A stretch of 39,123 nucleotides of DNA from Candidatus Aenigmatarchaeota archaeon (lineage in GTDB: Archaea; Aenigmatarchaeota; Aenigmatarchaeia; Aenigmatarchaeales; Aenigmatarchaeaceae), in NCBI GenBank assembly GCA_018221065.1, contig JAAOXY010000082.1, positions 1 to 39,123 on the forward strand. The letters are read 5' to 3'. This document shows positions 4,476 to 15,678 of the stretch, in pieces (the stretch's first letter is position 1; each line of letters opens with the position of its first letter). Under the pieces are notes generated by a model that searched no databases, had not been told where the DNA came from, and saw only the letters and a program-made list of their open reading frames with translations. A program made the position numbers and the translations under genes.

Positions 4476-4498
4476 AGTAATTAATATATATAGGGATT
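4476..4498 (-). promoter_or_regulatory. early promoter-like cassette core
   Basis: AGTAATTAATATATATAGGGATT, 38 nt upstream of ATG 4438. Confidence 0.5.
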
Positions 4499-4549
4499 CC
4501 ATCTAAAAATAACGGTGCCACAAGGCATTTATTACATGGGTTAATCATA

Positions 4550-4624
4550 TTAGGTATCTTCTTCTTTATAAGCAAGATGAATACAATTATCTTCTCCTAT
4601 AAAGCATCCCTCACAGTTATCCAT
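4550..4624 (-). pseudogene. N-terminal fragment of the Cys-rich family (24 codons)
   Basis: MDNCEGCFIGEDNCIHLAYKEEDT*. Keeps the CxGC knuckle but lacks the CPC half. Its ATG overlaps the stop of 4617..4790. Confidence 0.35.
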
Positions 4625-4790
4625 AAGACTCACTCTCCCATTTATTCCATGGATCGCATCCCACTCGGCACATAGTTTTAACTAGACAGTAAGTACATGG
4701 GCAGTCTCCATTTGAATTTCGATCTCGAGTTTGTTTAAAACAACCAATAACACATCCTATACAGTTATCTATACAGTTATCTACACTCAT
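4617..4790 (-). CDS. small Cys-rich protein, family member (57 aa)
   Basis: Hand-translated: MSVDNCIDNCIGCVIGCFKQTRDRNSNGDCPCTYCLVKTMCRVGCDPWNKW.. 58 codons. GGAGGAG lies 9 nt upstream. Confidence 0.6.
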   Translation of the reverse strand: MSVDNCIDNCIGCVIGCFKQTRDRNSNGDCPCTYCLVKTMCRVGCDPWNKWESESYG

Positions 4791-6152: not shown

Positions 6153-6339
6153 CTCAATATTTTCCTTCGCATATGTAATTGTCCCATTCAGGACAGCAGT
6201 CATTATTTGCCTTTTGATCAGGATTACATCTCATTACTTTCATCAAACAAATATTACATGGTCATGATTCATCATTAAAAGTATAACATATTAAATCCTC
6301 TATACTATAAAGAGGACACCCCTCACAATTCTTAGACAT
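6153..6339 (-). pseudogene. disrupted Cys-rich family member (in-frame TGA plus 1-nt frameshift)
   Basis: MSKNCEGCPLYSIEDLICYTFNDES-TGA(6262-6264)-PCNICLM, then a +1 shift into KVMRCNPDQKANNDCCPEWDNYICEGKY*. Span is 187 nt (3n+1). Confidence 0.55.
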
Positions 6340-7874: not shown

Positions 7875-7903
7875 AATGACACCTCCTTTTAATTTAAATT
7901 AGG

Positions 7904-7973
7904 TACCCCGCAGAGGGGTCGAACCTCCTGTGCCGCTTCGTAAAAGAACGGCTGCTCCTAACAGCAACGGGGT
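7904..7973 (-). tRNA. tRNA-like element with a non-canonical anticodon arm
   Basis: Minus-strand read: a 7-bp acceptor stem (ACCCCGT/GCGGGGT), U8, a D-loop GG, a T arm GGAGG-TTCGACC-CCTCT, and a discriminator A followed by CC. The anticodon arm has either a C.A mismatch with loop UUUUACG, or a perfect 5-bp stem CCGUU/AGCGG with a 9-nt loop CUUUUACGA. Confidence 0.4.
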
Positions 7974-9890: not shown

Positions 9891-10124
9891 CTAGCTTTCT
9901 ATCCGTCTCCGGCATTCAGTTGCGATGGTTTCCACATTCTGAAAGGCATGATACCAACCTGTTACCATAATTGCAAGACTCACAATTCCAAATACCCAAT
10001 AGAACCAAGGCATTGAACCCATCACTTCATAATAATGAAAGATGTTCCATGATAACCAGACACCAATTGAAAACACTATCCAAAACCCAAACGCTTCTTT
10101 CACATTTCTTCTTAAGTCTTTCAT
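9891..10124 (-). CDS. membrane protein (77 aa)
   Basis: ORF track. GGAGG RBS. Two hydrophobic segments. Confidence 0.7.
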   Translation of the reverse strand: MKDLRRNVKEAFGFWIVFSIGVWLSWNIFHYYEVMGSMPWFYWVFGIVSLAIMVTGWYHAFQNVETIATECRRRIES

Positions 10125-10167
10125 AGTGTAACCTCCTATTAAAATAAGTGTTGTATAACTCCTTTAT

Positions 10168-10191
10168 CATTCATTAATATATATAGTAATT
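10168..10191 (-). promoter_or_regulatory. early promoter-like cassette core
   Basis: CATTCATTAATATATATAGTAATT, 44 nt upstream of ATG 10124. Confidence 0.5.
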
Positions 10192-10216
10192 ATTTCTTTC
10201 TTGGGTAAAATGGGTA

Positions 10217-10403
10217 TCAAGGATGCTTTTCTATAATTTCATCAAAATATTTCTGTCTTATTTGACATTCAAAAAATTTTTTACACATAGCTTTAACTAC
10301 ACAAATACCACATAGGACATTTTCCATTATTCAATCCTTCTAAATCACACCCTTTTAAAATCCAGAAATAGTACCCACAACCAGTACAATGTTTATTTTC
10401 CAT
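10217..10403 (-). pseudogene. frameshifted Cys-rich family member
   Basis: MENKHCTGCGYYFWILKGCDLEGLNNGKCP, then one extra base (TGT CCT A TGT), then CGICVVKAMCKKFFECQIRQKYFDEIIEKHP*. Frame 0 stops at 10293-10295. Span is 187 nt (3n+1). Confidence 0.5.
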
Positions 10404-10413
10404 CTTCCTCCTT

Positions 10414-10455
10414 AAAAAAAAGAGATCAGGCCATAAGGACTCCAATCTCTTTTTA
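10414..10455 (-). terminator. intrinsic terminator
   Basis: A-run, AGAGAT ... ATCTCT, T-run. Confidence 0.5.
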
Positions 10456-10537
10456 TCGCAACCTCAAGAAAGGTCCGTTGACTTGGGACCTGCCACAAGC
10501 CAGTTCTGCCACCAAATCAGAAGTATGCGAATTTCAT

Positions 10538-10708
10538 TTAATGAAATGTGAAATTTTCAAATTCCATTCCCAAAAGTTCAAGAGGCATATCTTCATCTAT
10601 GAGCGTTTCAGCTAGGCGTTTATTCTCTAACCATTCTTTTATCACTGGACACATATCACGGCATTCATGTCTACCGGGACATATAGCACAAGGACTATTT
10701 GGATCCAT
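10538..10708 (-). CDS. small Cys-containing protein (56 aa), C-half-like motif PCAIC..C..MC
   Basis: Hand-translated, 57 codons. GGAGGTAATTCGA RBS. Promoter core 40 nt upstream. Preferred over the antisense track ORF 10548..10730. Confidence 0.55.
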   Translation of the reverse strand: MDPNSPCAICPGRHECRDMCPVIKEWLENKRLAETLIDEDMPLELLGMEFENFTFH

Positions 10709-10747
10709 TCGAATTACCTCCTTAAAATAATTAAGATTTTGTTTATT

Positions 10748-10769
10748 AGAAATTAATATATATAGAATT
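10748..10769 (-). promoter_or_regulatory. early promoter-like cassette core
   Basis: AGAAATTAATATATATAGAATT. Confidence 0.5.
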
Positions 10770-10775
10770 AAGAAC

Positions 10776-10943
10776 TTAACTTAATTTTTTAGATTGGTTT
10801 TTATACCACTCATCCCAACTTTCACATCCATAATCACACATCATTTTAACAAGACAATTCGTACATGGACATGAACCATCTTGAATTTTATAACACCTTA
10901 TAGCTATTGTTTTATATGAGCACCCATCACATTTATTCCTCAT
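10776..10943 (-). CDS. small Cys-rich protein, family member (55 aa)
   Basis: Hand-translated: MRNKCDGCSYKTIAIRCYKIQDGSCPCTNCLVKMMCDYGCESWDEWY.. Confidence 0.6.
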   Translation of the reverse strand: MRNKCDGCSYKTIAIRCYKIQDGSCPCTNCLVKMMCDYGCESWDEWYKNQSKKLS

Positions 10944-11112
10944 TATCTATATCCCACTTATCATGATCATCACATATATTGTAGCACATCGGTTTAACGA
11001 CACATATCCCACATGGACAGTTTCCATCATCATTATAATAATTAGAACATACATTGCCTTTAGCGTAACACCCATCGCAATAATTATGATTTATTTCTTT
11101 ATAAGGATTCAT
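10933..11112 (-). CDS. small Cys-rich protein, family member (59 aa)
   Basis: Hand-translated codon by codon: MNPYKEINHNYCDGCYAKGNVCSNYYNDDGNCPCGICVVKPMCYNICDDHDKW.. Confidence 0.6.
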   Translation of the reverse strand: MNPYKEINHNYCDGCYAKGNVCSNYYNDDGNCPCGICVVKPMCYNICDDHDKWDIDNEE

Positions 11113-11295
11113 ATTTAAGATCCTCTTTAAATAAACGCCATTCCCTCCATTTATAGCACCAATCCTGACACATCATTTTTACAATGCATTTGGAGCATGG
11201 ACATGAACCTTCTAGATTAAATTCTCTTACAGAATAACAAGCTCCAATATGGGAGTCACCGGACAACCTTGACAGTTTGGACGATCACCACCCAT
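11099..11295 (-). pseudogene. frameshifted Cys-rich family member
   Basis: MGGDRPNCQGC in frame 0 (stop at 11227-11229). The rest, GDSHIGACYSVREFNLEGSCPCSKCIVKMMCQDWCYKWREW.., is in another frame. Span is 197 nt (3n+2). Confidence 0.5.
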
Positions 11296-11554
11296 AAGAG
11301 TTGGAAAGAAAAGCGGGCTCTACTACAGCCTTTTTTTCTTTATATGTTGGGAGTTTATTCCATGCTTCATATGCTTCTTTGTCACCTCCATGATAAAACA
11401 TATAACTTGCATCACACACGACTTCAATGACATGCTCTTTCGGCATTACTGGAGGTTGCCCATTATCCTCTAAGGCCCTTAAAGAATCACCGCCAATATA
11501 ATCCCATGTTCTTAAAGCCATATTTTGTATTCTTGTTTTCATTCTCTCATCCAT
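11285..11554 (-). CDS. hypothetical protein (89 aa)
   Basis: ORF track. Overlapping-gene operon. Confidence 0.75.
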   Translation of the reverse strand: MDERMKTRIQNMALRTWDYIGGDSLRALEDNGQPPVMPKEHVIEVVCDASYMFYHGGDKEAYEAWNKLPTYKEKKAVVEPAFLSNSYGW

Positions 11555-11804
11555 CTTTTTCCTCCATATTCAAATGTTTTTTAATCTCATCTAAATCATC
11601 TTGAATGTGTATGAGTCTTTCTGTTTTATTAGATTGTTTCCTATGTTGAAGTATATCATCTAAAACTTCTGCTTCTTTTCTACCTGAGACAAATTCCCAG
11701 ATGTAATGACCATATTCAGAAATTAGATGAACAATAACCAAAATTGATAGTATGGCATCCCAATATTTCCATGCCATTAGTGATTGCATTAGATCAAGCA
11801 TCAT
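11547..11804 (-). CDS. hypothetical protein with N-terminal TM (85 aa)
   Basis: ORF track. Confidence 0.7.
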   Translation of the reverse strand: MMLDLMQSLMAWKYWDAILSILVIVHLISEYGHYIWEFVSGRKEAEVLDDILQHRKQSNKTERLIHIQDDLDEIKKHLNMEEKDG

Positions 11805-12114
11805 CTATCTCCTTTTCAACTGTTGGTCTTTCCCCATATGCGTCTAGATCTTTTGGAGCGTCAAATAATAAACTCATTTCTAATGCGCCTCTAATTTGGT
11901 TAAGAAAAAGCGTTTTACACATTGTCCATTCATAGTTTGCAACGCATCTTCCATTTCCGTTTTTAGACCACTCTCCTTCTTTAATTCCATTCTCCCGCAT
12001 AATATTATAAAACTTTTCTTTTAAAGTTTTTATCATTCGTTTGTTTACGGGCATTTTAATAATGTCTTCTGCTACTTTCCTCATCTTTAAATTTCGTTTA
12101 TCATTTTGATTCAT
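11794..12114 (-). CDS. hypothetical protein (106 aa)
   Basis: ORF track. ATGA overlap with the upstream frameshifted ORF. Confidence 0.75.
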   Translation of the reverse strand: MNQNDKRNLKMRKVAEDIIKMPVNKRMIKTLKEKFYNIMRENGIKEGEWSKNGNGRCVANYEWTMCKTLFLNQIRGALEMSLLFDAPKDLDAYGERPTVEKEIDDA

Positions 12115-12309
12115 TTATTATCTCCCTTATATATTCCTTGGGGGTATTGTCTGTTATACCAATCGCTCCATTTGTCACATACCTTTTCATCGTTACACAT
12201 TGGTTTAACCACACATGAAGTACATGGGCAGCCCCCCATTAATATTAATATCATTTTCTGCCTCGCATACCATTGATCCACATCCTATACAATGCCCATT
12301 TTTATTCAT
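12111..12309 (-). pseudogene. frameshifted or split Cys-rich family member
   Basis: MNKNGHCIGCGSMVCEAENDININGG, then a +1 shift at a G6 run (plus-strand CCCCCC 12232-12237), then CPCTSCVVKPMCNDEKVCDKWSDWY..*. An internal ATG at 12239 could start a 42-aa C-half ORF. Span is 199 nt (3n+1). Confidence 0.5.
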
Positions 12310-12314
12310 AGTCT

Positions 12315-12506
12315 CTAAACTCCTTCTATAAATATTTTTTGGTGAACCCATTCCTCTTCCCTATCACAAGTACAATAATGAGGCATCATTTTAACTATAC
12401 ATGTCATGCATGGGCAGCTTTCATCGCTGTTTAATATTGTGCTACATGGCAAAGAGTAGCAGTTTGGGTAATGGCTGCACCCTTTACAATATGGATTTTT
12501 ACTCAT
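12315..12506 (-). CDS. small Cys-rich protein, family member (63 aa)
   Basis: In-frame ATG 12506 (MSKNPYCKGC..ESCPCMTCIVKMMPHYCTC). Overlaps the ligase stop by 8 nt. The longer track start at 12581 lies inside the ligase gene. Confidence 0.65.
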   Translation of the reverse strand: MSKNPYCKGCSHYPNCYSLPCSTILNSDESCPCMTCIVKMMPHYCTCDREEEWVHQKIFIEGV

Positions 12507-15431: not shown

Positions 15432-15626
15432 TTATCCCTTTTTTGGAAGGGAAGATTCGCAACCCCATTCGTAAGTTTTGAATTCTATACATTCTTCTGA
15501 ACACATAACTTTTACAACACAATTAGTACATGGACAAGAGGCGTTTATATTATAGTTGATATATTTACATCGAACGTCTCCACTCTCATAGGAATAGATT
15601 TTACAGCCTTCACAAAACTTATCCAA
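15432..15626 (-). CDS. small Cys-rich protein, family member (64 aa)
   Basis: ORF track. TTG start with AGGAG 7 nt upstream. MDKFCEGC..ASCPCTNCVVKVMC. Confidence 0.65.
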   Translation of the reverse strand: MDKFCEGCKIYSYESGDVRCKYINYNINASCPCTNCVVKVMCSEECIEFKTYEWGCESSLPKKG

Positions 15627-15678
15627 AATATTTCTCCTTTATTCGTCTGCTAAATTAATCAAATCCTCCATTTTTAAT

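Follow-up and report, generated by a model that had tools for sequence, protein, structure and literature searches.

How should a gene be read when its two halves lie in different frames, one base apart, at a run of six G on the coding strand? This question is raised by the copy of a small cysteine-rich gene family at 12111-12309, for which the original prediction had left three readings side by side: a sequencing error, a slippage-based switch, or decay. The comparative evidence that we collected speaks for decay, and more precisely for a recent inactivation, since the orthologues lack the G run and are read in one frame, the sister lesions in the same phage are of other types and lesions occur only in this family. 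The switch, in turn, was left without positive support.

The DNA analysed here (the window) is the whole of a 39,123-bp contig (C40) from a 644-kb metagenome-assembled genome (MAG) of 109 contigs, and has a G+C content of 34.5%. It appears to be a piece of a large environmental phage: its left 17 kb carries small minus-strand early genes, and its right part plus-strand structural and glycosylation genes. Megablast and blastn searches with the window found no DNA-level similarity to GenBank phages. In IMG/VR, searches with the ligase and with an 89-aa gene of the window returned only distant relatives (31-35% identity) without family copies nearby, and an exact 29-mer had no match. The 89-aa gene found relatives of 41-63% identity at best among metagenome contigs, no relative of the contig was found in genomes from the MAG's family, and an exact look-up of the ligase showed it not to be on record elsewhere. 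Close relatives were nevertheless recovered. A search with the read-through product of the split copy found one protein, P0001 (63 aa, 74% identical), on contig L027 (3155 bp), which is syntenic with the window at a DNA identity of 91-92%. Further relative contigs (L029, L030, L031, L033 and L032) were obtained through the cluster that includes the 89-aa gene, a conserved neighbour, L029 being 20 kb taken from a 33.6-kb contig. An exact 23-mer common to the window, L027 and L033 was absent from the metagenome contigs and genome contigs searched. L032 comes from the Logan assembly of run SRR15671255 and is 100.000% identical, without gaps, to window positions 9906-11722 (1817 bp). Its ends, at window positions 11722 and 9906, fall near points where the window and its relatives lose collinearity (the boundary of a 106-aa cassette, and a break at about 9900), and co-existing strain variants in the sample may be the cause of these end positions.

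Table. Features of the split family copy, its neighbours and the sister lesions (positions in the window).
Feature	Positions	Strand	Sequence or basis
N half of the disrupted family copy	12232..12309	-	ATG 12309-12307 through Gly26, MNKNGHCIGCGSMVCEAENDININGG (26 aa)
G6 homopolymer with one surplus base	12232..12237	-	formed by the last two Gly codons of the N half
ATG in the C-half frame	12237..12239	-	ATG GGG GGC TGC
Zero-frame TAA	12205..12207	-	after 8 out-of-frame residues, LPMYFMCG
C half, +1 frame	12111..12231	-	CPCTSCVVKPMC...GDNK, stop TGA 12113-12111
ATGA overlap, C-half stop / start of 106-aa gene	12111..12114	-	sequence reading
106-aa gene	11794..12114	-	own AAGGGAG ribosome-binding site seven bases before the ATG
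Intact neighbouring paralog	12315..12506	-	63 aa from MSKNPYC
Sister lesion, one base missing	11099..11295	-	TGTCC-GGTGAC vs TGTCCTGG in four orthologues (alignment A4)
Sister lesion, CPC motif with one base added	10217..10403	-	TGT CCT A TGT vs TGT CCG TGT in L027
Sister lesion, first Cys codon of CPC replaced by an in-frame TGA	6153..6339	-	sequence reading

The two halves belong together. The N half bears the invariant Cys7, Cys10 and Cys15 and is identical to the intact orthologue P0001 at 22 of 26 residues, while the C half, whose frame runs from the junction as CPCTSCVVKPMCNDEKVCDKWSDWYNRQYPQGIYKGDNK to the TGA at 12113-12111, bears Cys27, Pro28, Cys29, Cys32, Cys38 and Cys44 (columns from alignment A1). 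Against a family HMM that was made from intact copies, the N half matches profile positions 2-27 (E=3e-4) and the C half positions 20-55 (E=1.9e-14), and such complementary positions identify them as two parts of one domain rather than a chance resemblance. If both frames are read in turn, all the invariant residues (C7 C10 C15 C27 P28 C29 C32 C38 C44) are encoded. Read from the ATG at 12309, whose GGAG ribosome-binding site is contributed by the 3' end of the intact paralog next to it, the gene ends at the TAA at 12207-12205, a stop formed out of frame by the conserved Val-Lys codons (GTT AAA). This gives a 34-aa peptide with only three of the eight conserved Cys, so that the frameshift divides them 3 + 5 between the pieces. 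The run at 12232-12237 is one of only two runs of six G/C in the window. Base by base, the separation of the halves by a single base at this run was borne out; the ATG at 12239 had been placed correctly in the C-half frame, and the overlap of the C-half stop with the next gene at 12114 is real on a reading of the sequence.

The ancestral state can be read from the relatives. A single uninterrupted frame crosses the junction in three of three orthologues, those of L027 (63 aa), L029 (57 aa) and L033 (partial). The junction codons are GAT GGA AGC TGT CCA TGT in L027, AAT GGA AGC TGC CCA TGC in L033 and GAT GGA AGT TGC CCT TGC in L029, compared with AAT GGG GGG C TGC CCA TGT in the window, which has exactly one extra column against the three (alignment A3). 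No slippery G tract stands at the junction in any of these aligned relatives, from which the window differs there by two A-to-G changes and one added G. With Gly-Ser-Cys encoded in one frame and without a G run in the orthologues, the ancestral state is a single ORF, and the G run is lineage-specific. Exact look-ups of ten possible G5 or G6 products found none of them on record in any other assembly.

The family to which the split copy belongs has the motif CxGC...C...CPCxxCxVKxMC...C and is represented in the window by about 10 intact copies besides the broken ones, by a divergent copy at 10538-10708, and by two longer proteins (668-1018 and 948-1283) with the C-half motif only. Across an alignment of 31 members C7, C10, C15, C27, P28, C29, C32 and C44 are invariant, and G9, K35, M37 and C38 nearly so. 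A profile search of 1.84 billion representatives returned 2733 proteins at E<=1e-3, mostly of 55-80 aa; 143 members had no match in Pfam or PHROGs, and the family profile had none among PDB chains. AlphaFold2 models of the intact orthologue reached a pLDDT of 56 when 31 sequences were aligned and of 63 with 143 sequences, values too low to make a fold search meaningful. From the spacing of the eight Cys we infer a metal-binding or disulfide-held mini-domain. Several of the best matches in the database are proteins of 108-142 aa that carry two tandem family domains (P0015, P0017, P0018, P0021-P0023, P0025, P0027, P0028), so that fused double copies exist elsewhere. One conserved copy, RRNILDKFCEGC..., present in the window (15432-15638, minus strand) and in L029 (6557-6751), lacks, in both, any ATG, GTG or TTG in its open frame ahead of CxGC.

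The lesion at 12111 does not stand alone. Four broken copies among about 15 had been counted, and these are confirmed (12111, 11099, 10217 and 6153), with a degraded fragment at 4477-4681 in addition. The base missing at 11099, a T in TGTCC-GG, is not in a long homopolymer and the same gap is seen in L032; the extra base at 10217 likewise lies outside homopolymers and is identical in L032, which was independently assembled. The orthologues of both copies are intact in the relatives (L027, L029, L031, L033), where all of about 30 family copies are single-frame. The lesions are also confined to the family: 26 non-family L029 orthologues (53 to 580 aa) are single-frame against the window, and the probability that three random lesions would all fall in the family's fraction of the orthologue-comparable coding sequence is about 0.0013.

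The positions of the breaks within the copies are a separate observation. Three of the four single-lesion copies are broken at most 7 nt from the first Cys codon of CPC: the G6 run (12232-12237) lies just before it, the extra base of the second copy falls within CP^C (10310-10320), and the third has its TGA at 6262-6264. Apart from this TGA, the last copy keeps a single frame, which leads from MSKNCEGC to ...CLMKVMRCNPDQ...EGKY and a stop. In the degraded fragment, too, the break comes immediately ahead of PC (4540-4560). Under random placement such clustering has a P of about 0.003, a rough and post hoc figure, and no mechanism was found for it.

Is the surplus G real? The sequence could truly be G5 (GGG GGC, Gly-Gly) and the gene intact, the extra G being a miscall or a minority variant that entered the consensus. 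The break does sit in a G/C run of the longest class that the window has, and only in a homopolymer would a consensus miscall be plausible. The G5 version would be a perfect family member with every invariant residue; the dN/dS of this copy is not raised, and the lesion lies outside the reach of the independent contig, as L032 stops at 11722 and so covers two sister lesions but not the G6 run. Yet the assembly has no general indel problem, the 26 non-family orthologues being single-frame, and frame breaks were not found in other homopolymers or genes. Intact window ORFs of at least 100 aa contain 22 long homopolymers (counting A/T from 7 and G/C from 5 bases up), A/T runs of 7-9 among them, and elsewhere in the MAG the open frames around G6 runs extend over 284-1204 codons. 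The earlier argument against generally poor sequence quality is thereby supported. Moreover, two sister frameshifts outside homopolymers match base for base in a separate assembly and, since they are reproduced in L032 while the relatives are intact, genuine frameshifts exist in the family in this phage. We therefore consider an artefact unlikely. If the base is real, it might instead be put to use, either because G5 and G6 interconvert as a heritable on/off switch or because the ribosome makes a +1 shift on G GGG GGC. A +1 slip on GGG GGG C restores exactly ...NGGCPC..., the P-site tRNA-Gly would re-pair perfectly, GGG is of the less used class of Gly codons, at 9.1 per 1000 codons making up about 13% of them, and an in-frame GGG GGG pair occurs in no other long ORF. 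For a switch, six-base runs are known as frameshift hot spots in T4-type replication, and low-level reversion is expected anyway. Against both, the tract is absent from three orthologues, all of them single-frame. The codons that enter the A site after the first GGG are GGG and CUG, with no stop and with GGG only moderately rare; no ribosome-binding-like element stands about 3 nt upstream, the nearest GAGG lying about 22 nt away; and the 106 nt spanning the run and its downstream region fold no better than shuffled sequence (z=0.30). The run thus lacks the combination by which a programmed +1 site is recognised, namely a conserved site and a slow A-site codon or stop together with a stimulator. 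The sister lesions, for their part, would need a -1 shift, a +1 shift at a non-slippery site and stop read-through, and no single mechanism fits them. With six bases, the tract is also below characterised contingency tracts. Because a six-base run is a hot spot, rare G5 revertants must exist in any large population; these expected revertants are a by-product of chemistry and not evidence for a regulated switch. Use as a switch or a recoding site appears to us quite improbable.

A further reading is that the two pieces are separately useful products, a 34-aa N peptide and a C-half peptide made from the ATG at 12239 or by re-initiation. C-half-frame ATGs do occur at 12239 and 4 nt past the zero-frame TAA, of which the latter invites speculation about re-initiation, and the two longer window proteins carry the C-half motif alone. 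Neither ATG, however, has a ribosome-binding site ahead of it (none was seen 5-12 nt upstream of ATG 12239, the nearest GAGG being about 22 nt upstream), no relative has such a split and the invariant Cys are shared out between the pieces, so that we regard two useful products as extremely improbable. The C half had also been described as still translationally coupled to the gene that follows. The ATGA overlap stands but coupling is overstated: ribosomes from the ATG at 12309 terminate about 90 nt before it, and the 106-aa gene has its own AAGGGAG and needs no coupling. In L027, L031 and L033 the stop of the copy overlaps the start of an 85-aa gene in like manner, and the overlap is inherited from this ancestral arrangement. 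The 106-aa gene is missing at the corresponding position in L027 (443), L031, L033 and L029 (9751), and its absence in these four relatives makes it a lineage-specific cassette. It is precisely inserted between the family copy and the 85-aa gene. Its homologues, at 49-70% identity, are located on other phage contigs among different neighbours, and the exact protein was not on record elsewhere in an exact look-up.

Unusual decoding was also considered and rejected. ARAGORN predicts a tRNA at 7902-7973 on the minus strand (72 nt, 61% G+C) with the anticodon UUA, which would read UAA, and with a C-A mismatch in the anticodon stem. Quadruplet decoding by this tRNA fails, the UUA anticodon matching no four-base word at a codon boundary from Cys15 to CPC, and the sister lesions would need different four-base words. 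It would be surprising if the tRNA worked as an ochre suppressor where UAA serves as the main stop, at the end of 31 of the 42 long ORFs of the window. An alternative code with TGA as a sense codon was discarded, since TGA ends 5 of the 42 long ORFs and the 12111 copy as well.

We thus consider the split at 12111 to be probably a real and recent slipped-strand +1 mutation, which made a null allele of a redundant paralog. In the sequence of events that we propose, the ancestral GGA AGC (Gly-Ser) would have become GGG GGC by two A-to-G substitutions, which created a G5 run, and slipped-strand misalignment during replication would then have added one G. The 34-aa peptide would be unable to form the metal- or disulfide-held core, giving a null allele, and the C half would persist only because there has been too little time for decay. 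The 106-aa gene downstream would be translated from its own ribosome-binding site, and the loss of the copy would be tolerated with about 10 other intact paralogs in the phage. Against L027, dN/dS is 0.41 for the 12111 copy, 0.34 and 0.37 for intact paralogs and 0.42 for the broken 10217 copy, values of low power at 62 codons. All eight Cys codons of the 12111 copy are kept and it has no second lesion. Together, its dN/dS and its retained Cys codons indicate that the break is young relative to the divergence of about 9% from L027. Relaxed constraint, with a dN/dS near 1 and secondary lesions, is not what this copy displays, and a pseudogene reading is therefore compatible only with a very recent inactivation. 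That no secondary decay is seen would be expected of an artefact, or of a gene still in use, just as much as of a very recent mutation.

Several known systems resemble this locus in part. Classical T4 rII frameshift hot spots lie at six-base runs, and the lesion shares with these Streisinger-type slips a one-base addition in a 5-6-base run of a phage gene, null and revertible; it differs in that the run is of G and not A, was first made by two substitutions, and is environmental rather than laboratory-selected. With phase-variable loci of Neisseria, Haemophilus and Campylobacter it shares a G tract in the 5' part of the ORF whose length sets the frame. The tracts of characterised contingency loci, however, are usually no shorter than 7-8 bases and are kept as tracts from strain to strain, whereas the tract described here has 6 and is absent from all orthologues. 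With the +1 frameshift of prfB/RF2, whose site is CUU UGA C with an upstream Shine-Dalgarno-like element, it shares the direction of the shift and a possible perfect P-site re-pairing, but it has no in-frame stop or starved codon, no correctly spaced stimulator, no conservation and no structured RNA. A parallel to the family as a whole is the birth-and-death turnover by which accessory multi-copy families change in the plastic early regions of large phages, with tandem and scattered paralogs, copy gain and loss and occasional dead copies. Gain and loss are seen here too: the 10933 copy and the 106-aa cassette are absent in L027, which has an extra copy at 1894-2079. In L031 (595-870) a deletion joined an 11099-type copy, with the frame preserved, to the C-terminal tail of a 10776-type copy, giving a 91-aa product, which is a further mode of turnover in the same tandem run. 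Dead genes in phage genomes are normally purged fast, and the four to five dead copies in this one phage, compared with none among the roughly 30 copies of its relatives, are an unusually high pseudogene load. The event at 12111 is thus ordinary in kind, and the unusual part is the load that the family carries in one lineage.

It could be hypothesised that the cluster of lesions reflects selected silencing and not neutral decay, with a host defence that senses the paralogs and with the G6 run acting either as a leaky +1 site or as a switch of the Streisinger type that can be reversed; we hold this to be very improbable, and if it were true, the phage population would be keeping the 12111 gene in reserve. 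On the preferred reading of a recent inactivating mutation, the direct importance of the lesion is small, one dead accessory copy, and it marks the members of the family as individually dispensable. The family itself is abundant, with thousands of representatives, yet it has no relative in Pfam, PHROGs or the PDB, and natural knock-outs like the 12111 copy are a cheap pointer to testing what its proteins do.
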